A stretch of 64,000 nucleotides of DNA. It comes from Patescibacteria group bacterium (GTDB lineage: Bacteria; Patescibacteriota; Minisyncoccia; Phycocordibacterales; JACOZG01). Of the stretch, positions 10,009-57,794 are shown piece by piece. The stretch spans positions 81,321-145,320 of the forward strand of contig JBBTQW010000002.1 of NCBI GenBank assembly GCA_038065495.1. Reading direction: 5' to 3'. Made by a program: the position numbers and the translations under genes. The notes below the pieces were generated by a model, which was given only the letters and a program-made list of their open reading frames with translations, was not told where the DNA came from and did no database searches. Positions within the stretch are counted from its first letter, which is position 1, and every line of letters begins with the position of its first letter.

Positions 10009-10080
10009 GTGACCCTACAGGGAGTCGAACCCTGCTTCTAGCCTTGAGAAGGCTATGTCCTAGCCGATAGACGATAGGGC
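10009..10080 (-). tRNA. tRNA-Glu (anticodon CUC)
   Basis: Reverse complement folds as GGCCCTA/TAGGGTC acceptor, GTC/GAC D-stem, anticodon arm TAGCC-TTCTCAA-GGCTA, T-arm CAGGG-TTCGACT-CCCTG, discriminator A. CCA is not encoded. Confidence 0.8.
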
Positions 10081-10117
10081 CCCGATTTTGTTAAACGAAG
10101 TTTCTACAAAATCGAGG

Positions 10118-10166: not shown

Positions 10167-10406
10167 TTACTTTTTTAGTAATCTTTCAATCGCCGCACGA
10201 CTTTTCCACTTTTTAATCTGGTATTCACGACCTTGAGCCAAAGATCTGTTTTGGTAGGTTTCCGAGTAAATAAGCTGACAAGGTAAATTATTTTTTGTTG
10301 ATTTTACTTTCCCATTCTGATGCTCAGTTAATCTTTGTTCTAAATTACCAGTGCTTCCAGTGTAATATGATCCATTACTCAGTTTTAGAATGTAAGTGGA
10401 ATACAT
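10167..10406 (-). CDS. GIY-YIG nuclease-domain protein (about 80 aa)
   Basis: MYSTYILKLSNGSYYTGSTGNLEQRLTEHQ is the GIY-YIG motif. Start chosen at the ATG with an AAGGAAAG RBS. Confidence 0.75.
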   Translation of the reverse strand: MYSTYILKLSNGSYYTGSTGNLEQRLTEHQNGKVKSTKNNLPCQLIYSETYQNRSLAQGREYQIKKWKSRAAIERLLKK

Positions 10407-10418
10407 TTTTATCTTTCC

Positions 10419-10460
10419 TTTCCCGATCCCGATTCTTCGAATCGTGGATCGAGGATCCAC
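10419..10460. repeat. right arm of the inverted repeat flanking GIY-YIG; also contains the local palindrome cgtggatcGAGgatccacg
   Basis: tcccgatcccga (reverse complement of tcgggatcggga) and ggatcgaggatcc. An adjacent second hairpin gacgttaa...ttaacgtc overlaps the murF stop codon. Confidence 0.6.
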
Positions 10461-10475
10461 GACGTTAATGTTTAA

Positions 10476-11765
10476 TTAACGTCGGGACCAGTTTTCGTCT
10501 TGCCTGACAAGTAATTTACTTTTCTCTTCTGGTTGCGCCATAATCTCCTCCACCACGCGCTCCATGCGCAGTGATTGCGAACCTTTTACGAGAATCACAT
10601 CAGCTGGCGCAATAAAGTTCTGCAGAAACTCGCCAGCCTGGCGCGAATCATCGAAGTGATAAACATTTTTCTTGCCCATTTTTTTCTTCATCGCTTCTTC
10701 CACGGCAAATTTCATCCGGAGTCCGACAGTCACCAACACGTCCGAGACGCGCGAAGCCAGAATCCCCACTTTCCGGTGCTCATCTATCGTATATTTGCCA
10801 AGTTCGAGCATATCACCCAACACTGCGATCTTCCGGCCAGTAATTTGCAAGCTGTTGAGAGTCTGGAGCGCCGCTTCTATTGCCGCCGGCGAAGCATTGT
10901 ACGTATCGTCAATAATTAGCGTTTCTTTAATTCCAGCTAGCAAGCGCATCCGGCCAGGCGGTGTGGTGAGGGTTTTGAGCGCTTCGCTCGCGCTCGCTAG
11001 ACTCATCCCCTGCGCCACGGCCGCGGCGGCAGCCGCAAGCAGCGCGTAGAGCTGGTGCTCTCCGAGCACGCCGTGGAGCTCAAACTTAACGCTCTCGCCG
11101 GCATAAGTAATCTGCACACTCAAGCCAACTGGCTGATTTTCATAAATAATTTGCACATCAGACGCCAGCAAATCAGAACCCGTTTGGAAGCCGTAGCTTA
11201 ACTTTCTCGCCTTCAAGCCATCAGCTAAATCGCGAATTTTTTCGTCGTCATGATTATAAATGACCAAACCCGATTCACTTACCGCTTGCGCGAGCAACCA
11301 CTTTTCTCGCGTCACCTCTTCGGCGGATTTAAAAAACTCCACATGCACTGGCACTTCCGGCAAACGGGTAATCACAGCCACGTCCAGCTTGAGCCAGCTC
11401 ACCAAGCGCGCCACATCGCCCGGGTGCTGAATGCCCACTTCTAACACCAATAATTCCGGATAATTAGTTCTAAACAGAATTAAACCCAAACCTTCGATAA
11501 TATTCTTCAACCACAAAACTAGATTCCACCAAGCGTTATCGCAATTTAAGATAGTGAGCGGCAAACCAATCTCGTGATTAAAGCTCTTCTGACTCGCTCT
11601 CAATCTAAATTTACCAGAGAGGACAGTCGCAATCGCATCTTTTGTACCCGTCTTGCCCACACTGCCAGTGATGGCAATGATTTTGGGCTGGTACTTTTTT
11701 AAGACCAATCTCGCCTCCCAGCGGAGAATCGTCGTGATGAGAAATCTAGCGGTCTGGCGGAACAT
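10476..11765 (-). CDS. murF: UDP-N-acetylmuramoyl-tripeptide--D-alanyl-D-alanine ligase
   Basis: KIIAITGSVGKTGTKD P-loop and Mur ligase middle and C domains; sits in the dcw cluster. Confidence 0.85.
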   Translation of the reverse strand: MFRQTARFLITTILRWEARLVLKKYQPKIIAITGSVGKTGTKDAIATVLSGKFRLRASQKSFNHEIGLPLTILNCDNAWWNLVLWLKNIIEGLGLILFRTNYPELLVLEVGIQHPGDVARLVSWLKLDVAVITRLPEVPVHVEFFKSAEEVTREKWLLAQAVSESGLVIYNHDDEKIRDLADGLKARKLSYGFQTGSDLLASDVQIIYENQPVGLSVQITYAGESVKFELHGVLGEHQLYALLAAAAAAVAQGMSLASASEALKTLTTPPGRMRLLAGIKETLIIDDTYNASPAAIEAALQTLNSLQITGRKIAVLGDMLELGKYTIDEHRKVGILASRVSDVLVTVGLRMKFAVEEAMKKKMGKKNVYHFDDSRQAGEFLQNFIAPADVILVKGSQSLRMERVVEEIMAQPEEKSKLLVRQDENWSRR

Positions 11766-18837: not shown

Positions 18838-18954
18838 GTTATTGGTTATAAACAGTCCGACTATTCTAAACCAAAAAGCTTTTTTAAGCAAGAAAAAAGC
18901 CTCGTGCTCGCCTATTTAGATAGACGAACCGAGGCTCTGGATCAAGATTTCACG

Positions 18955-19179
18955 CTACTTCTGCCCAGCTCGCGACTCAGCTTCGGCAATGGATTCTGCC
19001 CGATTCCGCCAAAGAAACCGAGTACGATTCAAATCACTAACACGAGTGACGTGACCAGGGCAATCCTCATTACCACACAGTGGCCCCGCCAGCATATCTC
19101 CCTCGTTCTCTCGTATTTGCGATCCATCCCATAAAGCCCAACAATTATCGCACTCATAAGTACCAATGTACGCCGACAT
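18955..19179 (-). CDS. small Cys-rich (zinc-ribbon-like) hypothetical protein, 74 aa
   Basis: CDNC ... CGNEDC cysteine pairs; ORF only, no known family recognised. Confidence 0.35.
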   Translation of the reverse strand: MSAYIGTYECDNCWALWDGSQIRENEGDMLAGPLCGNEDCPGHVTRVSDLNRTRFLWRNRAESIAEAESRAGQK

Positions 19180-39513: not shown

Positions 39514-40488
39514 TTAGAGTCCGCGATAGACGATAGCCGAGATATCAGCGATCACTTGTTGCAATTGCCCAAAGTCCTGCCCCTTGGTCATTACACAGAG
39601 CAAATAAGGCCTGGTGGGATAATAAACAACGCCACAGTCGTGGAGCTCACGAGAGATTACTTGTCCGAGAGCGTCGGTGCTGGTATGTTCGCCAAATTTA
39701 TGAGCCACCACTATATCTGCCGGTACACCGGCCACTAGACCATGCTTGAAGGTAGTGAGGGAAAGGAGCTGGAGAGCATACTCCGATAGACCCCGTGGCA
39801 GATAAGTAGAACTAAAGAGTGTCCGGATAATTTGAGAGAAAACCTGTGGTGACATGTAATCAACCGTATCAGCTGTTGGTGGCGGTGGGATCTTGAGGCC
39901 TTTAAAGACTTCGGCCAAAGCTTGTTTATGCTGATCAAACAGAAGCCCGAGGGCCACATTATCGGAGTCGACGATCATTGCTTCAATCAATTGTTTGATA
40001 GTATAGCGACCGTCTGCTAAAACATGACTGGGTGGATAATGCTGACCAAAATCAGTTTTGTTTTTATAATACAATTCCTCTGTCAGGATATCTGGATTAG
40101 TGCTGGCCGCCTTGAGATACCAGAGCATCACCGCCACCTTAAGCATACTCGATGGGCCATAGAGCCACGTCTCATTTACCCCAGTCCACCGGCCAAAGTT
40201 GAGGTCACGAAAATAAACGGAAATTGATTCGGCCTTACCCTCTCTGGTGGCCTTGTGCACAAACTGCTCGATTTGGCTCTTGAGTGCCGCATACTCCGGC
40301 GACTCACGTGGTATGTCAACGAGCAAAAGAGGTCGGATAAAATGATATTGGCTAGAATCCTCCCGTATCTGTACTAGCGGATTAGGTTGGTGCGAGACAT
40401 ACCAGACACGGAGAAACCAGCCAAGCACAGTACCAACTATCAAAGTAGTCAGAGCAACTTGCCACCAAACTAGACGCTTAAACATCAA
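39514..40488 (-). CDS. class A beta-lactamase-fold serine hydrolase (PBP/beta-lactamase-like), membrane-anchored
   Basis: SMLK (SxxK), SDN loop (DSDNVA) and a KFG triad variant; N-terminal TM helix. Confidence 0.6.
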   Translation of the reverse strand: MMFKRLVWWQVALTTLIVGTVLGWFLRVWYVSHQPNPLVQIREDSSQYHFIRPLLLVDIPRESPEYAALKSQIEQFVHKATREGKAESISVYFRDLNFGRWTGVNETWLYGPSSMLKVAVMLWYLKAASTNPDILTEELYYKNKTDFGQHYPPSHVLADGRYTIKQLIEAMIVDSDNVALGLLFDQHKQALAEVFKGLKIPPPPTADTVDYMSPQVFSQIIRTLFSSTYLPRGLSEYALQLLSLTTFKHGLVAGVPADIVVAHKFGEHTSTDALGQVISRELHDCGVVYYPTRPYLLCVMTKGQDFGQLQQVIADISAIVYRGL

Positions 40489-40515
40489 GCCTAGTTTAAC
40501 AAAAAATCACTCTGC

Positions 40516-40543
40516 TTGACAATTTAACTCACTCGACTATACT
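40516..40543 (+). promoter_or_regulatory. near-consensus sigma70 promoter (TTGACA-N16-TATACT) with no downstream ORF
   Basis: Hexamers read directly from the sequence; predicted TSS near 40550. Confidence 0.5.
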
Positions 40544-40549
40544 TATAGT

Positions 40550-40722
40550 GTAAGTTCATTGGGCATGTGAGAATGATCGTTGATAGATAGAGTTATCTTC
40601 TAGTTTTCCAATCAGTTCAGCTGTTTACCCATAAACCATAACTCTCTCTTCTCTTCGACTTCATTTCCCTCTCATCCCCAATCCACTTACACCCCCTCGT
40701 CGCTTCGGCACGAGGGTTTTTT
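40550..40722 (+). ncRNA. candidate small RNA (about 170 nt), pyrimidine-rich 3' half with CCUC/CUCU motifs
   Basis: Bounded by the promoter above and a UUCG-loop intrinsic terminator; no ORF longer than a few codons; lies between two minus-strand genes. Confidence 0.4.
40694..40722 (+). terminator. intrinsic terminator (ccctcgt-c-gc-UUCG-gc-acgaggg + TTTTTT)
   Basis: Plus-strand hairpin with a T6 tail. It cannot serve the adjacent minus-strand gene, which ends at 40731. Confidence 0.6.
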
Positions 40723-40730
40723 CATGTTAA

Positions 40731-41309
40731 TTAACGACTTTCTCCTTCGAAGTCTTGGGCCACTTCGCCAAATTTCAAAGTCACGGGATCAAGCTTGAGC
40801 CAGACACTCTCGCCGACCGAAGGCGCCACTGTCATCGGCTCATCTGGTTTACGCACAGCGTAATTGACCACAATCACATTGTCTCTCAGCGTTTCTCGCA
40901 CTGTTACACCCTCATCAAGATTGACCGACTGCGGCGCAATCCGATCGCCCAAAAAGTAAGAATCAGAACCAACGTGGCCATTGACTGTATCCAGCACGGC
41001 TACGACGTAGAAAAATGTTCCGCTGCCGCCGCCAGTTTGAGTGACCAAGAACACCAAATCTTCTCGGCCATCATTATCCAAGTCGTGTTTAAGTTCGTGA
41101 CCAAAATAGCGGGTAGTAATTTTTGCTCCGGGGATCGAGGCCAGTGCGACTTCCGCCACGCCATCCACCAGCGTAACTGGTGTATTCTCGACTTTAAACG
41201 TTGCGTTGCGCGCATCGAAATTTGCAGAGTTCTCTGACCAGCTAAAACAAATAGCGATAGCAACAACAATGCTAACTACAATAATTAGATAGACGATACT
41301 CTTTTTCAC
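40731..41309 (-). CDS. hypothetical membrane-anchored exported protein (192 aa)
   Basis: N-terminal TM/signal anchor and a DLDNDGREDLVF calcium-binding-like motif; no family recognised. Confidence 0.45.
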   Translation of the reverse strand: MKKSIVYLIIVVSIVVAIAICFSWSENSANFDARNATFKVENTPVTLVDGVAEVALASIPGAKITTRYFGHELKHDLDNDGREDLVFLVTQTGGGSGTFFYVVAVLDTVNGHVGSDSYFLGDRIAPQSVNLDEGVTVRETLRDNVIVVNYAVRKPDEPMTVAPSVGESVWLKLDPVTLKFGEVAQDFEGESR

Positions 41310-41381: not shown

Positions 41382-41564
41382 ATGACTGATATTATCCATG
41401 CCGATATCTTCTTCTTTGTGGCAACGCTCGCGCTCATCGCCATTAGCGTTCTCGTAGCGATTGCCCTGACTTATTTGATTATCTTACTCCGCCGTCTCAA
41501 CCAGACTAGCAAAGATGCCGCCAATATTGTGTCGCGAATCAAGAAGTTTTTTAAAAAGCGTTAG
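41382..41564 (+). CDS. small membrane protein (60 aa)
   Basis: Single TM helix (FFFVATLALIAISVLVAIALTYLIILL) with a basic C-terminal tail. Confidence 0.4.
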   Translation: MTDIIHADIFFFVATLALIAISVLVAIALTYLIILLRRLNQTSKDAANIVSRIKKFFKKR

Positions 41565-41602
41565 AAATTATTAAGAAATAAGACAAAAATAAAAAGAAAA
41601 AT

Positions 41603-41782
41603 ATGAAGAAAAAACCAGAGAAAAAACCAGAGAAAAAACAAAATTATGAGGCGATCACTCACGCCATTGCTGATAAGTACCACGTGCTCAAGCAGGCCAG
41701 CCTGGATGATATTCTCGTCTTTGCCCGCGATCTCAATCACGCTTGGCAGAAGTTGGAGAAAAGCGCCGGCAAGAAGATATAA
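41603..41782 (+). CDS. small basic hypothetical protein (59 aa; MKKKPEKKPEKKQ... N-terminus)
   Basis: ATG..TAA ORF just below the 60-aa track cutoff; tandem 12-bp repeat gaaaaaaccaga x2 encodes the KKPE repeat. Confidence 0.35.
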   Translation: MKKKPEKKPEKKQNYEAITHAIADKYHVLKQASLDDILVFARDLNHAWQKLEKSAGKKI

Positions 41783-41794
41783 CAAGATATAACT

Positions 41795-41941
41795 ATGCCT
41801 GATACAAAATCAAAAGATATTGACGCCGACAACGCTAGCCGAGAGGCCGCTGAGGCCGAGGAGCGAGCCAATGACGCCCACGAAGCCGCTGCCAAAGAGC
41901 ATGAGGAAAAAGCCGCCGAACACGAAGAGAGGAGCAATTAG
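41795..41941 (+). CDS. small acidic low-complexity protein (48 aa)
   Basis: ATG..TAG ORF; E/A-rich (AAEAEERANDAHEAAAKEHEEKAAEHEE). Confidence 0.3.
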   Translation: MPDTKSKDIDADNASREAAEAEERANDAHEAAAKEHEEKAAEHEERSN

Positions 41942-41948
41942 AATTAAC

Positions 41949-42023
41949 TGGCTCCCTGGGTAGGATTCGAACCTACGACCAATCGCTTAACAGGCGACTG
42001 CGCTACCGCTGCGCCACCAGGGA
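41949..42023 (-). tRNA. tRNA-Asn (anticodon GUU), CCA encoded
   Basis: Reverse complement folds as TCCCTGG/CCAGGGA acceptor, GCGC D-stem, GTCGC-CTGTTAA-GCGAT anticodon arm, GTAGG-TTCGAAT-CCTAC T-arm, G discriminator, CCA. Confidence 0.85.
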
Positions 42024-43091: not shown

Positions 43092-43817
43092 TTGATGTTA
43101 ATAGTAATCAGCTTGGCGACAGCTATCTTTACTCTACTTGGTGGCTTATTCGCGCTCAAGTTCCGCGATAAACTGCACTTGATTCTCGGCTTCTCGGCCG
43201 GCGCACTCATCGGCGTGGCTTTCTTCGACTTGTTACCCGAAGCTCTCGAGCTTGGCGAGAATTATTTCTCTACTTCGCAAATCACTAGTCTAATCGCGCT
43301 GGGCTTTCTAGTTTATCTAATCTTAGACAGATTAATCTTGCCCCACAGTCATCATCACGATGAACATTGTGAGAACGAGAGTCACCGTGGCCGGTTCGCT
43401 GCCGGCTCGCTCTCCTTCCACAGCTTGCTCGACGGCATCGCGATCGGTCTCGCCTTCCAAGTTTCTAGCGCGGTTGGTTTAATCGTGACTCTCGCAGTGC
43501 TAACTCACAAGTTTCTCGACGGCATCAGCATCGTTAGTTTAATCCTGAAAGACGGCGGTGAGAAGAAGCTAGCCTTCCAGTGGCTAAGCCTCGCTTCCAT
43601 CGCGCCAGTGGTTGGCATCATCTCCACCCTGTTCTTCACTCTCCCACAATCTGCGCTCGCACTGATCCTCGCATTCTTCGCCGGCTTCTTCTTCTACATT
43701 GGTGCCAGCGACTTGCTCCCCGAGAGTCATCACGCTCACCCCACGCGCTGGACAACTCTTGCTACTATTTTGGGCCTTATCGTGATTTACACGGCGGTTA
43801 GTGTGGCTGGGGTTTAG
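43092..43817 (+). CDS. zupT: ZIP-family zinc transporter
   Basis: HSLLDGIAIG and HKFLDGISI metal-binding TM motifs and a His-rich loop (PHSHHHDEH). Confidence 0.8.
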   Translation: MMLIVISLATAIFTLLGGLFALKFRDKLHLILGFSAGALIGVAFFDLLPEALELGENYFSTSQITSLIALGFLVYLILDRLILPHSHHHDEHCENESHRGRFAAGSLSFHSLLDGIAIGLAFQVSSAVGLIVTLAVLTHKFLDGISIVSLILKDGGEKKLAFQWLSLASIAPVVGIISTLFFTLPQSALALILAFFAGFFFYIGASDLLPESHHAHPTRWTTLATILGLIVIYTAVSVAGV

Positions 43818-43848
43818 GAAATTTTGGGAAAATAAAAAAGCCACCGGA

Positions 43849-44181
43849 TTAGGGTGGCTCGACGAAAAATGCTTCCATCATCGTCGTTTTGATTCTAGAA
43901 GAGAGATCTCCTTCGATGATCTTGGGAATAACCTGACTAATCAAGTTCAAGAGAACTCGTGTATCTATCTCTGTGAACTGTTCAGCAGTCCTTCCGGACG
44001 ACTCAAGATCGACAATCTCAAGCTCTAGTTTTTCGAAAAGTTTTCGCGCCAATTTTTCCTCTTTCTTGTAAACCTTGACCTTGCAGAAGGTAAAGGCAAG
44101 AACGAAGAAAATTTCCACCGTCGGATGATTCATATTCATATTAACTCCAATCTTCAAAGACCGTGAGCGGCACGTTGCCAC
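43849..44181 (-). CDS. hypothetical protein (about 96-110 aa)
   Basis: ORF only; start uncertain (possibly MNMNHPTV). Confidence 0.3.
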   Translation of the reverse strand: MATCRSRSLKIGVNMNMNHPTVEIFFVLAFTFCKVKVYKKEEKLARKLFEKLELEIVDLESSGRTAEQFTEIDTRVLLNLISQVIPKIIEGDLSSRIKTTMMEAFFVEPP

Positions 44182-49893: not shown

Positions 49894-50949
49894 CTATTTT
49901 GGATTCGAGAAGAGACCAGACTTTTTATCTTCTTTAAAGAATTTAGGATTCTTGAGGTTAACTAAGATAGTATTATCTTTGACATAACGCTCTTTCTTCA
50001 CAGCCGCCATCACTTGAGCTTTCGTCATCGCGCCATTTTTGTCGAGAATTTGCTTAATCACGTCGCGAACAATACCCGGCGTGTAGCCCCAATCGCCAAG
50101 CGCATATAATCCCCGCCCAACGAGCACGAATCTCGGATCTTTAATTAATTCATTGTGACTAGTCGCGGCATTAGTTTTGCGACCAAAGGTGGCCGTAATC
50201 TCTTTGGCGACTTCGGTAAAGTGCATTGGAGAACCCTTGCGACGCATGACGAGGAAAGCGTAATCTTTGATCCCTCTTACGCGCACATTTGGCGACTTGG
50301 CCAGGCCCCACTCGCCCACCGGACTCAAACCAATCTCTTTGGAGAGCTTGAGCCAGTTCTTGACCTTCTGCCGAGCCATCTCTGGCGAGACGCGTTTATC
50401 CAAACCACTCATAAAGTGCTCCACAATTTTATCTTCAGAAACTAATTCGTTAGTATCGAGAACTTGGCAGAGATTGCGTAGTGACTGATGCACGCCTTCG
50501 GCGAGGCTCGCATCCACCGTCCAACGATGATGGAAATAATCATCTTCTTTTAGTTTCGCAAAAGCGTCGCCGAGCACAAGCAAGAAGTGCACATTATTCT
50601 GGACCACCTGATCTTTAGAAATATGATCAAGAAACTCCTGCTCGTGCACCAGGCCGCCGTAATCTTCCATCACACCCTTGAGCTGGGCAAAGATTGACTG
50701 AGCAGCTGTATTGGCCTCAGACTTCTTGATCTGCGCAATCGTGGCATTCTCAATCTGCCGCACGCGCTCGCGGGTGATGCCATAGATCTGGCCCACCGCC
50801 TCCAGTGTCATCGTCTCTTTCGTCGCCAAGCCATAACGACGCTTAACTACGTCACGTGGCCGCGCCCCAAGGCTGGCCAAAAGCTCTTTTACCACCTCAA
50901 CTGGCTTGAAGGCCATCACCTCTTTTGTTTCTTTGCTGTTGTTATTCAT
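49894..50949 (-). CDS. sigma-70 region-4-like HTH domain protein fused to an unknown ~280-aa C-terminal domain
   Basis: TLEAVGQIYGITRERVRQIENATIAQIKK is a canonical sigma70 region 4.2 HTH; regions 2 and 3 are not detectable. Confidence 0.55.
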   Translation of the reverse strand: MNNNSKETKEVMAFKPVEVVKELLASLGARPRDVVKRRYGLATKETMTLEAVGQIYGITRERVRQIENATIAQIKKSEANTAAQSIFAQLKGVMEDYGGLVHEQEFLDHISKDQVVQNNVHFLLVLGDAFAKLKEDDYFHHRWTVDASLAEGVHQSLRNLCQVLDTNELVSEDKIVEHFMSGLDKRVSPEMARQKVKNWLKLSKEIGLSPVGEWGLAKSPNVRVRGIKDYAFLVMRRKGSPMHFTEVAKEITATFGRKTNAATSHNELIKDPRFVLVGRGLYALGDWGYTPGIVRDVIKQILDKNGAMTKAQVMAAVKKERYVKDNTILVNLKNPKFFKEDKKSGLFSNPK

Positions 50950-53900
50950 GTTTTTATATTATCATAGATTACAAAATTAAGCAAACGTCCTGGGATATAA
51001 ACTACCTTTTTTACCGTTTTATTGTCAAGCCACTTCTGCACTTTAGGGCTCTGTAGAGCCATATTCTTGGCTATTTCTTCTGTTGCTTCTTGCCCGCCAC
51101 TCAACACGATTTTGTCACGAATTATACCATTGACCTGAATCATAATATTTTGCTCACGTGTTGTAGTTTTTTCTCCAGATTCACTCAGTTCTGGCCACTT
51201 CTCTTGATGAATCGAGGTGTTATGTCCCAACTTTTGCCACAATTCTTCTGCGATGTGCGGCGCAAAGGGTGCGAGAAGCTTAAGAAAAACTTCATAATCT
51301 GTTTTACTCACGCCTTCTTTCTCAAAAGTGTTCAACAAAATCATCAAGCCAGAAATAGCCGTGTTAAATTTGAGACTTTCAATATCTGATGTTATTTTCT
51401 GCACCGAATCAGCTAAATTTTCTGCAGTTTTTTCTGACAGATTATCACTCAATTTCCAGACTCTCTCCAAGAATCTTCTTGGCCCAATTATACTTTCTGT
51501 ATTCCAAGCCACCGCTTGCTCAAATGGACCCATGAACATTTCGTACAATCTCAGCGTATCAGCGCCATAAAGTCCCACAATTTTATCGGGATTAATGATG
51601 GTCTCCGGCTTTGACTTACTCATCTTCACTCCACCTTCAGCGAGAATTAAGCCGTGACTCGTACGCTTCTGATACGGTTCAGAATTTGGCACTAATTTGA
51701 GATCAAATAAAAATTTATGCCAGAATCTAGAATAGAGCAAGTGCAGAGTCGTGTGCTCCATGCCACCGTTGTACCAATCCACGCCGCCAAGACTTGTTCC
51801 AGTTTTGCCTAGCCAATATTGCAATTTTTCTTCACTCGCAAATTCTTGAGCATTTTCTGGATCGCAGTAACGCAGATAATACCAGCTTGAACCCGCCCAG
51901 TTCGGCATCGTGTCAGTTTCTCGCCGCGCTTCGCCGCCACATTTCGGACATTTCACATTCACCCACTCACTCACGCTCGCGAGTGGCGATTCGCCGTCAT
52001 CACGGGGTTGATATTCTTTGACTTCCGGCAAAATCACTGGCAAATCACTTTCTGGCACAGGTTGCCAATCACATTTGCTGCAAAAAATCATCGGAATCGG
52101 CTCACCCCAATAGCGCTGTCGCGAAAAAATCCAATCGCGCAGTTTGTAAGTCGTTTTCGCCGTGCCAAATTTCGCGATTATTTTTTCCCGCGCCTCAACA
52201 GAATCTAAGCCGGAGAATTCGCTGGAATTTATCATTACACCTTCGCTAGCCCAAGCATGTTCGGGTTTAAAGAACCGGTCGAGCCACAGCTCGTATTCTG
52301 AACATTTGATATTTTTGTCTTTCGCCAGTTCGTCCCAAGTTAGCCAAACGACTTCATGAATCTGTTTCTCCTCTTCCGACAACTCTTGCTGTTCTTCGTT
52401 CTCTAACTCAAAAACCAGAGCGTGAAAAACCGCTTTTCGGTTCTCGTTCTTGTGATTAGCAAAGAAATGCGACTCGACTGGACCACCTAAAGTTTTCACA
52501 TACTTCACATTTTTATAGCCGGTTTCTTCGGTAATTTCTCTTTTTGCTGCTTCCACCATATCTTCGTCACCCTCGATCCCACCAGTGATAAATGTCGTCC
52601 AGGGAAATTTTTTCCACTTCAAACACAAAACTTTCTGATTTTTGGGATTAATAATTATCGCCTGAATGGCATTTCTCGCTACCGTTTTCACGCCTTCGCG
52701 CGGCGGATCGTGGGTGTCGATCATTTTGGGCGTCACCACTTCTCTAATCGGTAAATTATGTTTCTGCGCAAAAGCAAAATCCCGCTCATCATGGGCCGGC
52801 ACGCCCATCAGTGCGCCGGTGCCCACATCAGACATTACATATTCTGCTTCCCACACTGGAATCTCCTCCCCCGTGGCCGGATTAGTCACATACTGGCCAG
52901 TAAATTTATCGGTTTTGCCAGCAATGGCCAGATAAGTCGCGCCGAAAATCGTTTCTGGCCGAGTGGTGAAGACTTTGATCACCCCACCCGCACCCTCCCC
53001 CAAGGGGAGGGCTAAGTTTATTTGCTCCAAAACTTTTTTAATGTTATTTAAAACCTCTTCGTTGCTGAAACGAATAAGTTTATAGCCGAGTTGTGCCAAA
53101 TATTTTGTTCTTTCTTCGTCAGATTCCTTTTGATAATCATGAACATCCCCGTCAACTTCTACTACCAACATTTTTTCTAGACAAACAAAATCAACAATAA
53201 ATTTTCCAATAATATGTTGGCGGCGAAAGTGGCAACCTAGTTTATTGTCTCTTAATTCTTGCCACAATTTCTCTTCAGCTTCAGTAGGATTCTGACGCAT
53301 ACCCACCGCTTTTTCTTGTAAAGCGCGGTAGGCGACTGGATCAGCAGTTTGATAGCCAAATTCGCCCCACCCATTCCCTCCCCCAAGGGGAGGGTTCTTT
53401 CTCTCTTCCCCCTCTCCTTTGGGGAGGGGGTCGGGGGTGGGGCTGAATGGAAACTCAATCTCCGCTCCCTCACTTCTCCCAATCCAATTTCTCTGCTGGA
53501 TTTTGATTTTTTCTAAATAGTCTACCGTGTCCAGATCTTTATCCAATCTGTCCGCATACTTCGTAATCGCCAGCATCCATTGCTCTTTCTCTCGTTGTTC
53601 CACTTCCGTACCACAACGCTCACACTTACCATCAACCACTTCTTCATTCGCCAAACCAATTTTATCTTTCGGACACCAGTTAATTAGCGTTTTCTTCTTA
53701 TACGCCAAGCCGTGCTGATAGAACTGCAGAAAGAGCCATTGCGTCCATTTGTAATATTCCGGATCAGTGGTGTTGATCTCGCGTGACCAATCAAATGAGA
53801 AGCCAAGCGCTTTGAGCTGTTTACGAAAGTTATCCGTATTTTCTTGCGTCACCAGTGCCGGCGCTTTGCCCGTTTTGATTGCGTAATTCTCTGTTGGTAG

Positions 53901-54161
53901 ACCGAAAGCGTCCCAGCCCATCGGATAGAGCACGTTCTGACCCATCATCCTCCGCTTTCTCGCCAAGATATCCAGCGCCGTATAACTCCGGATGTGACCG
54001 ACATGCAAGCCATCACCAGACGGAAACGGAAACTCCACCAAACAATAAAACTTATTTTTTTCTCCCGCTTCGCTTTTTTCTTGCGCAGAATAAATACCAG
54101 ACTTCTCCCATTCCGTCTGCCATTTCTGCTCTATTTGATTGTGATCGTAAGCTTCAGCCAC
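50946..54161 (-). CDS. leuS: leucyl-tRNA synthetase carrying an in-frame DUF559 endonuclease-fold insertion (1071 aa)
   Basis: HIGH-type motif (HVGHIRSY), CP1 editing motif TTRPETIFGATY, KMSKS and the anticodon-binding domain are all present. About 160 extra residues lie between NWIGRSEGAEIEF and VFTTRPET. Confidence 0.9.
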   Translation of the reverse strand: MAEAYDHNQIEQKWQTEWEKSGIYSAQEKSEAGEKNKFYCLVEFPFPSGDGLHVGHIRSYTALDILARKRRMMGQNVLYPMGWDAFGLPTENYAIKTGKAPALVTQENTDNFRKQLKALGFSFDWSREINTTDPEYYKWTQWLFLQFYQHGLAYKKKTLINWCPKDKIGLANEEVVDGKCERCGTEVEQREKEQWMLAITKYADRLDKDLDTVDYLEKIKIQQRNWIGRSEGAEIEFPFSPTPDPLPKGEGEERKNPPLGGGNGWGEFGYQTADPVAYRALQEKAVGMRQNPTEAEEKLWQELRDNKLGCHFRRQHIIGKFIVDFVCLEKMLVVEVDGDVHDYQKESDEERTKYLAQLGYKLIRFSNEEVLNNIKKVLEQINLALPLGEGAGGVIKVFTTRPETIFGATYLAIAGKTDKFTGQYVTNPATGEEIPVWEAEYVMSDVGTGALMGVPAHDERDFAFAQKHNLPIREVVTPKMIDTHDPPREGVKTVARNAIQAIIINPKNQKVLCLKWKKFPWTTFITGGIEGDEDMVEAAKREITEETGYKNVKYVKTLGGPVESHFFANHKNENRKAVFHALVFELENEEQQELSEEEKQIHEVVWLTWDELAKDKNIKCSEYELWLDRFFKPEHAWASEGVMINSSEFSGLDSVEAREKIIAKFGTAKTTYKLRDWIFSRQRYWGEPIPMIFCSKCDWQPVPESDLPVILPEVKEYQPRDDGESPLASVSEWVNVKCPKCGGEARRETDTMPNWAGSSWYYLRYCDPENAQEFASEEKLQYWLGKTGTSLGGVDWYNGGMEHTTLHLLYSRFWHKFLFDLKLVPNSEPYQKRTSHGLILAEGGVKMSKSKPETIINPDKIVGLYGADTLRLYEMFMGPFEQAVAWNTESIIGPRRFLERVWKLSDNLSEKTAENLADSVQKITSDIESLKFNTAISGLMILLNTFEKEGVSKTDYEVFLKLLAPFAPHIAEELWQKLGHNTSIHQEKWPELSESGEKTTTREQNIMIQVNGIIRDKIVLSGGQEATEEIAKNMALQSPKVQKWLDNKTVKKVVYIPGRLLNFVIYDNIKT
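52993..53011. repeat. 19-bp near-palindrome ccctcccccaaggggaggg (copy 1), flanking the DUF559 insertion
   Basis: Identical 19-mer at 53376..53394; both copies preceded by ccccaccc. On the coding strand it encodes PLP(K/L)GEG. Confidence 0.8.
53376..53394. repeat. 19-bp near-palindrome ccctcccccaaggggaggg (copy 2)
   Basis: Direct copy of 52993..53011. Because the unit is near-palindromic, the pair also acts as terminal inverted repeats. Confidence 0.8.
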
Positions 54162-56990: not shown

Positions 56991-57034
56991 AAAAAAAATA
57001 AACCCCGTTCGCGATGCTGTGCATCGGAACGGGG
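56991..57034 (-). terminator. intrinsic terminator on the minus strand after the PEP-CTERM gene
   Basis: ccccgttcgcgatgc-tgt-gcatcggaacgggg, a ~14-bp stem; the plus-strand A9 run gives a T-run on the minus strand. Confidence 0.65.
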
Positions 57035-57080
57035 CGGTGTGGTTCAAATCAGTGTCAGATTATGATCAGGTGATTTGAGA

Positions 57081-57794
57081 TTAACAGAAAGATCTGCGCC
57101 GGCGAGGAAACAGAGGGAGTGAACCCAATCCGGCGATTGCCAGCGTCGCTGGTTCCGGCACCGGGCGATAGTCATAAGTGACTTTCGCGGTCAGGTTGAG
57201 AACCGGGTTCTCCACCTCTAGTTGCCACGAATCGGGCACATACGGCCCGAAGTTCGCCGTCTGGAAGATCACGTCCGGCGTGAACATGAAGTCCGCTGTG
57301 CCTGCGCCCAGATACGCCGCAAGCGGCTGAGCAGGATGTGAGACGGTCAATGTGGCATACGAGACGGTGCCAAAGTTGTGACCGTCTGGGCCAGAACTCT
57401 GGAAAACATCGTTATTACCACCATCGCCGTCATCCGGAGTAAGTGGGACCGAGGCTGTGTTCACAATCTTGGTATCGCCACTCGCGAGGCCGGCCGGGCC
57501 AGTCACTGACCACGAGCGAATCAGCTGACCTTGGACAAACAACTGCTGACCATGGTCAAACGGATCGTCGTTATCGGCCTGCAGATCCACCGAGCCATCA
57601 TGGCAAAACTCCACCAGCACACCGACCAGCTCGCGCGTGCCACCCATGTCGTCGAACTTGGGGACACTCACCACCACGCTCGGCTGGAGCGCACTCTCGA
57701 ACGAGTTCGATCCACTCACCATGTACGAATCCGCGCGCGCCGCGCTGGCCGTGAGCAACACGGCGACCATCCCCACCAAACTGGGAACTTTCAT
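57081..57794 (-). CDS. secreted protein with a C-terminal PEP-CTERM sorting signal
   Basis: Signal peptide MKVPSLVGMVAVLLTASAARA; C-terminus PVPEPATLAIAGLGSLPLFPRRRR (PEP motif, TM helix, Arg cluster). AAGGAG RBS before the internal ATG. GC-rich. Confidence 0.6.
   Translation of the reverse strand: MKVPSLVGMVAVLLTASAARADSYMVSGSNSFESALQPSVVVSVPKFDDMGGTRELVGVLVEFCHDGSVDLQADNDDPFDHGQQLFVQGQLIRSWSVTGPAGLASGDTKIVNTASVPLTPDDGDGGNNDVFQSSGPDGHNFGTVSYATLTVSHPAQPLAAYLGAGTADFMFTPDVIFQTANFGPYVPDSWQLEVENPVLNLTAKVTYDYRPVPEPATLAIAGLGSLPLFPRRRRSFC

Follow-up and report, generated by a model that had tools for sequence, protein, structure and literature searches.

Between two minus-strand genes in the genome of an uncultured Patescibacteria bacterium (Paceibacteria-type) from groundwater lies a spacer of about 242 bp, which we interpret from its sequence, with moderate confidence, as a stand-alone, species-restricted gene for a predicted non-coding RNA of ~173 nt with a double-stranded rod. 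In an initial annotation of the window (the whole 64-kb stretch of DNA analyzed here) the locus had been described as an orphan plus-strand transcription unit without an ORF, and a candidate non-coding RNA of ~170 nt is still the simplest reading of it. The main feature of the spacer, a 145-nt imperfect inverted repeat at 40548-40692, was absent from that annotation. The elements of the locus and its two neighbours are the following:

39514-40485/88, minus strand: gene for a Beta-lactamase2-family serine hydrolase (beta-lactamase-like gene), one flank of the spacer
40493-40522, minus strand: divergent promoter-like site TTGTCA-N18-(TG)TAAACT of the beta-lactamase-like gene, 8 nt before its ATG
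40516-40521, plus strand: -35 hexamer TTGACA of the orphan promoter, unchanged in the variant strain
40538-40543, plus strand: -10 hexamer TATACT, after a 16-nt promoter spacer, unchanged in the variant strain
40550, plus strand: predicted transcription start, a G 7 nt past the -10 box (+/-2 nt), placed by promoter geometry
40548-40596, plus strand: purine-rich 5' arm of the rod (59% purine), identical in the variant strain
40597-40637, plus strand: apex, 41 nt, mostly unpaired and hypervariable; its 4-bp mini-hairpin reads CAGU/GCUG here and CAGC/GCUG in the variant strain
40638-40692, plus strand: pyrimidine-rich 3' arm of the rod (78% pyrimidine, one G in 55 nt), the CU-rich segment of the initial annotation
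40694-40716, plus strand: terminator hairpin CCCUCGU-[C bulge]-GC-(UUCG)-GC-ACGAGGG with a cUUCGg tetraloop, about -14 kcal/mol
40717-40722, plus strand: T6 tract, present on the plus-strand side alone, with the stop codon of the 192-aa gene (40731-40733) 9 nt beyond
40731-41309, minus strand: gene for a 192-aa protein without Pfam match, the other flank of the spacer, convergent to the plus-strand unit

The two flanking genes are both encoded on the minus strand, as annotated previously, and their nearest relatives occur in Parcubacteria/Paceibacteria MAGs. An identical 192-aa protein is encoded on CAYHIU010000001.1 (assembly GCA_964356885.1) and on one Hainich groundwater contig. The 192-aa gene is separated from a tRNA (41952-42023, minus strand) by three tiny genes (41382-41941, plus strand); the products of these genes are a 60-aa membrane peptide, a 59-aa Lys-rich protein, and a 48-aa acidic protein, and no strong promoter of their own was detected.

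The promoter motif reported for the plus strand, TTGACA-N16-TATACT, was recovered at the same position and agrees with the consensus at 11 of 12 sites. Sites with at least 11 matches were found four times on the two strands of the 64-kb window (0.63 expected from Markov shuffles), and the other three are all directly upstream of genes. When at least 9 matches were required, 26 promoter-like sites were located within 150 nt upstream of annotated starts in the window; in 12 of these the -10 box ends 4-11 nt before the start codon, i.e., in a leaderless layout. The distance between the -10 box and the start codon is 8 nt in the beta-lactamase-like gene, 10 nt in the 192-aa gene, and 11 nt in the gene for a DEAD-box helicase. 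From these patterns, the motif appears to be predictive of real starts in this genome, and the genome itself appears largely leaderless (many of its genes look so); an SD-like 4-mer was present in only 15 of the 68 start regions of the window. Because the -10 boxes of both neighbours lie so close to their starts (8 and 10 nt), each neighbour seems to have its own promoter.

The divergent promoter of the beta-lactamase-like gene (40493-40522, minus strand) lies outside the candidate RNA and is listed for context only. It stands back to back with the orphan promoter, the -35 hexamer TTGACA (40516-40521, plus strand) overlapping TTGTCA (40522-40517, minus strand), so that binding of polymerase to the two may be mutually exclusive. 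Elsewhere in the window, the only two promoters that match the consensus at all 12 positions (27110-26977 and 33063-32951, both on the minus strand) share a TATAATGGGGGTTG start region, followed by leaders of 83-106 nt and by ORFs of 167 and 253 aa without Pfam match; the TATAATGGGGGTTG leaders may represent a shared leader or regulatory element.

The terminator described in the initial annotation is present with its UUCG loop and T6 tract, although its stem consists of 7+2 bp with one bulged C and not of 6+3 bp; its orientation for the plus strand was likewise recovered, the U-tract being on the plus side only. Canonical hairpin-plus-U terminators are in use here; apart from this one, all those in intergenic regions of the window lie at the end of a gene on their own strand. 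Since the U-tract side of this hairpin is without a protein gene, its orientation points to an RNA gene. Between promoter and terminator there is no ORF of at least 20 aa on either strand, and small-ORF readings of both strands were rejected; the longest plus-strand frame with a start codon in the candidate RNA has ~7 codons, in agreement with the earlier statement that nothing beyond a few codons is open. The combination of a promoter (at least 10/12), a canonical terminator 70-300 nt downstream, and no ORF was found at this locus only in 621 kb (the window plus related loci, sites inside open frames excluded). With the promoter threshold lowered to 9/12, a few unrelated candidates appeared in addition, of which none is rod-shaped.

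A terminator at 18898 (minus strand) was considered as a second orphan and rejected, because it ends a small 74-aa gene (18955-19179, minus strand). A promoter of its own (TTTACA-N16-TATAGT), a ribosome-binding site (GGAGG), and a strong terminator accompany this gene, which is overlooked by longest-ORF calling because a spurious ORF is open on the opposite strand. Its product is without Pfam match and contains four Cys in two C-x-x-C/C-x-x-x-x-C motifs, which suggest that it is possibly zinc-binding. At 43817-43860, a convergent pair formed by a ZIP transporter gene (plus strand) and a 110-aa ORF (minus strand) has one common hairpin (43839) with a U-tract on the minus side only and the A-tract side for the partner gene, and is thus a local precedent for a gene relying on the terminator hairpin of its partner.

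The foot of the rod is where transcription is predicted to start (~40550), and at its other end the rod stops 1 nt before the terminator stem; the predicted transcript would therefore consist of the rod and the terminator and nothing else. All 41 pairs of the rod are Watson-Crick pairs, none being G-U, and its 22 unpaired bases are without exception pyrimidines when read on the plus strand (U-C, C-C, and U-U mismatches, UCC and CU bulges), for which P is ~2e-7 (0.5^22) at equal base odds. A palindrome under neutral decay acquires mostly G-U and A-C mismatches, via transitions, whereas the eight mismatched positions in the rod would all need purine-to-pyrimidine transversions (P <=1.5e-4). With no G-U pairs and with pyrimidine-only mismatches, the pattern is unlike that of neutral decay and looks as if it had been under selection. 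The predicted fold (-53.9 kcal/mol) has z = -7.7 relative to dinucleotide shuffles; compared with native 145-nt segments of the 64 kb, it ranks in the top 1.7% on the plus strand and in the top 0.6% on the minus strand, and in the top 0.5% when G-U pairs are disallowed. The rod is also the second-longest gapless inverted repeat in the window (arms at most 150 nt apart). A pure Watson-Crick stem is equally stable on either strand, and for this reason the fold alone cannot identify the functional strand; it is the promoter and the U-tract, not the fold, that designate the plus strand.

Other stable folds were noted in the window. Two local folds (10373-10517 and 56993-57250) outrank the rod when G-U pairs are disallowed, one of them close to a tRNA at 10010-10081. 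The strongest fold of the window is a G/C-rich near-perfect palindrome (53362-53445) inside the leucyl-tRNA synthetase ORF (1071 aa; 50946-54161, minus strand), just upstream of a DUF559 domain. This ORF contains in frame two domains foreign to the synthetase, DUF559 (aa 281-385), a Vsr-like endonuclease domain, and NUDIX (aa 497-615), which may reflect the insertion of a mobile element of endonuclease type into an essential gene.

The spacer was found in one other strain only (Logan runs SRR13076587 and SRR13076588; 192-aa protein 97% identical), and the statements on conservation refer to these two strains. The initial annotation had named promoter hexamers that are not conserved in relatives as evidence against its reading; in the sole relative with the spacer, both hexamers are unchanged. 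Over the 138 nt of arms and terminator the two strains are identical, and over the 205 nt of the spacer outside the apex region they differ once, in the promoter spacer. The remaining nine of the ten differences lie within 40607-40643 (37 nt) and comprise seven substitutions, all transitions, and two indels; eight of them are in the apex and the ninth (40643) is on the adjoining 3' arm. Synonymous divergence in the flanking genes is 0.086, 0.053, and 0.25 (the strains overall are about 2-3% apart), and against the lowest of these rates (0.053) the values of 0/138 nt and 1/205 nt have P ~5e-4 and P ~2e-4, respectively, while the apex evolves at least as fast as expected under neutrality (P = 0.003-0.036). 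Promoter, rod, and terminator thus remain unchanged while synonymous sites drift, which makes it unlikely that the spacer is junk. In the variant apex, two changes reinforce predicted pairing: a U-G pair of the mini-hairpin is replaced by C-G and an inserted G adds a C-G pair atop the rod; one change creates an A-C mismatch. Six of the seven substitutions are T/C differences on the plus strand, a bias for which cytosine deamination of an exposed loop on the non-template strand would be a speculative explanation. Divergence along the region is mosaic, with zero differences over 40644-40865, i.e., into the 3' end of the 192-aa gene, and this low-divergence patch could be a recombination tract.

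The candidate RNA belongs to no described family in Rfam 15. Scanning the whole window at the gathering threshold returned three tRNAs elsewhere and no match at the candidate locus, and at E<=10 the 551 nt of 40350-40900 gave one meaningless match to a eukaryotic lncRNA (E about 1). Among relatives of the beta-lactamase-like gene in 56 GTDB genomes (at most 55% identity), and next to its closest relative in the protein database (63%), no comparable spacer was found; homologues of the 192-aa protein at 66-76% identity reside in other gene neighbourhoods, also without a comparable spacer. In related genomes (599 kb), neither blastn nor nhmmer nor a covariance model (R1) derived from the two strains gave any match, and in the 64-kb window these searches showed no second copy of the rod (with the filters of the covariance search off); the covariance model was run on the window plus 72 loci. 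The comparison with Rfam and with related genomes that had been proposed initially has therefore produced neither a family nor a homologue beyond one strain. Two pattern scans of JGI metagenomes (one exact, one partly R/Y-degenerate) were negative, four scans of viral contigs gave one 18-mer match that is without flanking similarity and attributable to chance, and blastn against phage and plasmid collections was negative. Because a match requires at least 14 exact bases, the pattern scans are weak at detecting diverged sequences. In the literature on 6S or other non-coding RNAs in CPR bacteria, nothing relevant was found.

If the locus is an RNA gene, transcription would start at about 40550 from the near-consensus sigma-70-type promoter, the first ~143 nt would fold into the 41-bp Watson-Crick rod with its pyrimidine mismatches and bulges and the variable 41-nt apex on top, and the cUUCGg hairpin with U6 would form the 3' end of the RNA, while the same hairpin would also close the convergent 192-aa gene. 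The rod might then act as a protein-binding or decoy RNA, or as the substrate of a double-strand-specific RNase, and not via a single-stranded seed. The candidate RNA is presumably transcribed. Because the sequence of the rod is conserved and its accessible loop varies freely, we infer that it works through its rod, being recognized as a helix; the absence of G-U pairs, the pyrimidine mismatches, and the variable loop point to helix recognition over base-pairing. To our knowledge, almost nothing is known about the regulatory RNAs of Patescibacteria, the genomes of which are small and streamlined, and if transcribed, this RNA would be one of the few candidate sRNAs in the group, although its restriction to one species limits its wider significance for now.

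The rod could also act as DNA or in a minus-strand read-through transcript, the spacer then containing an intergenic imperfect palindrome (REP/ERIC/Correia-type or mRNA-stabilizing) with a promoter that is fortuitous or borne by the element. Repeats of the ERIC/Correia type can form a hairpin in RNA of either strand and some carry promoters. We regard this explanation as having a small but real chance of being correct: the stem is strand-symmetric and slightly more stable when folded as the minus strand (-45.2 kcal/mol, top 0.6%, versus -41.8 kcal/mol on the plus strand), the unpaired bases in the minus-strand loops are all purines (the more usual loop composition in structured RNAs), and since the hairpin behind the 192-aa gene is not followed by a U-tract on the minus strand, read-through into the rod is plausible. 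It has to be set against this that the palindrome is single copy in 64 kb, that no copy of it turned up in the related genomes (599 kb) or among the metagenome, viral, phage, and plasmid sequences searched, that there is no target-site duplication at the rod ends (CTTATA / CCCCTCG flanks), and that both neighbours have leaderless promoters of their own. A palindrome of this kind would also leave unexplained why the start predicted from an 11/12 promoter matches the foot of the rod exactly and why a U-tract is found on the plus side.

An unlikely explanation, in our view, is a cis-acting module, in which the act of transcription would matter more than the RNA: the strong plus-strand promoter would compete with that of the beta-lactamase-like gene and the transcript would run antisense to read-through from the 192-aa gene, insulating the minus-strand units from each other. 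The overlap of the divergent -35 hexamers (40516-21 versus 40522-17) is consistent with such a role, as are the convergence of the unit on the 192-aa gene with a hairpin common to both, the lack of a conserved accessible loop in the RNA, and the confinement of the locus to this species and position. A by-product transcript, however, needs no 41-bp rod, no non-random mismatches, and no conserved arms.

The preferred reading, a stand-alone gene for a rod-shaped RNA, can be extended to an undescribed type of CPR/Patescibacteria rod RNA, i.e., a strongly promoted helix, studded with pyrimidine-pyrimidine mismatches and topped by a freely varying loop, that in a leaderless, streamlined genome of an ultra-small bacterium would serve as a decoy or scaffold for a dsRNA-binding protein or RNase or as a minimal polymerase decoy; this extension we consider rather doubtful.

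It is improbable that the locus is functionless, with a chance promoter beside a hairpin that serves the 192-aa gene only or, as a variant, with a long leader into the small genes at 41382-41941 (plus strand). A caveat on the promoter is that about 0.6 chance sites of at least 11/12 are expected per 64-kb window, and the three small plus-strand genes are without a strong promoter of their own, as the long-leader variant would have it. Nevertheless, chance is unlikely to bring start, rod foot, and terminator into such register, a terminator of the 192-aa gene would need its U-tract on the other side, and outside the apex the spacer has changed far less than synonymous sites; a long leader would in addition have to pass a strong terminator (-14 kcal/mol, U6) and cross the entire 192-aa gene in antisense.

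Several known types of element were compared with the locus and rejected. Against the antisense RNA of a type I toxin-antitoxin pair, the sole mini-ORF on the minus strand (15 aa, MKSKRRESYGLWVNS) is hydrophilic and is frameshifted by an indel in the variant strain. SRP (4.5S) RNA has a conserved tetraloop and AGCA-type motifs in its apical domain IV; here there is no Rfam match and the variable apex contains neither. An integron attC site (a gene-hairpin-gene layout on the minus strand) was rejected because RYYYAAC/GTTRRRY core sites and a cassette array are absent, and a retron, bridge-RNA, omega-RNA, or CRISPR-type guide because no reverse transcriptase, recombinase, TnpB/IscB, or cas gene is adjacent.

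It is very unlikely that the candidate is a divergent relative of 6S RNA, binding RNA polymerase as a mimic of an open promoter. 6S RNA is near-universal and usually syntenic within a lineage, and no homologues of the candidate were found; 6S models were unmatched both at the gathering threshold (window) and at E<=10 (551 nt), and the apical helix has only 4 bp, with the bulge-like apex being the least conserved part. These points outweigh the suitable size (140-175 nt), the long closing stem formed by paired ends (41 bp), and an open region whose 16-nt 5' side with CC and possible 3'-side hairpin are loosely as in PMC8414754.

Equally remote is a trans-acting base-pairing sRNA whose CU-rich segment would pair with Shine-Dalgarno regions, the function suggested in the initial annotation. 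Its observation that the 3' half is pyrimidine-rich holds (78% pyrimidine, one G in 55 nt, with CUCU/CCUC motifs), and an own promoter and intrinsic terminator without an ORF are the layout typical of such sRNAs. The proposed anti-Shine-Dalgarno seed, however, is the paired 3' arm of the 41-bp helix, facing the GA-rich 5' arm, its bases are mostly paired in the predicted ensemble, and opening any 8-nt stretch of it would cost 6-12 kcal/mol (~0.4 in parts of the apex). The predicted duplex energy of the 3' arm with the 68 translation-initiation regions of the 64 kb (mean -8.6 kcal/mol) shows no excess over shuffled sequences (-8.9) or CDS interiors (-11.3), so the complementarity to ribosome-binding sites that had been expected did not materialize. 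The genome is moreover mostly leaderless with few SD motifs, and the apex, the sole accessible part of the RNA, is the part that varies between the strains (9 positions).

Among known systems, repeats of the ERIC/Correia/MITE-like type resemble the locus in being intergenic imperfect palindromes of ~145 bp that give a hairpin on either strand; the rod differs from ERIC/Correia repeats in that it is single copy in the sequence at hand and its ends match the start and the terminator of a dedicated unit. Bidirectional or shared intrinsic terminators occur between convergent genes, and the locus is similar to them in having one hairpin between converging units, except that the U-tract side here is without a protein gene. 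In canonical 6S RNA, a large central bulge is followed by an extended apical stem with internal loops (PMC8414754). The candidate is like 6S RNA (RF00013) in its paired 5' and 3' ends, its small internal loops, and one larger open region, but its apical stem has 4 bp in both strains, beyond open strands of 16 nt and 14 nt, its open region is variable, and it ends in a separate 3' intrinsic terminator hairpin. With stand-alone sRNA genes it has in common the sigma-70 promoter, the intrinsic terminator, the absence of an ORF, the size class, the intergenic site between unrelated genes, and the restriction to a lineage, which many such sRNAs show; it differs from them in lacking a conserved single-stranded seed, since a single helix makes up nearly all of the body of the predicted RNA, and in that the sequence of this helix, and not that of the loop, is conserved.
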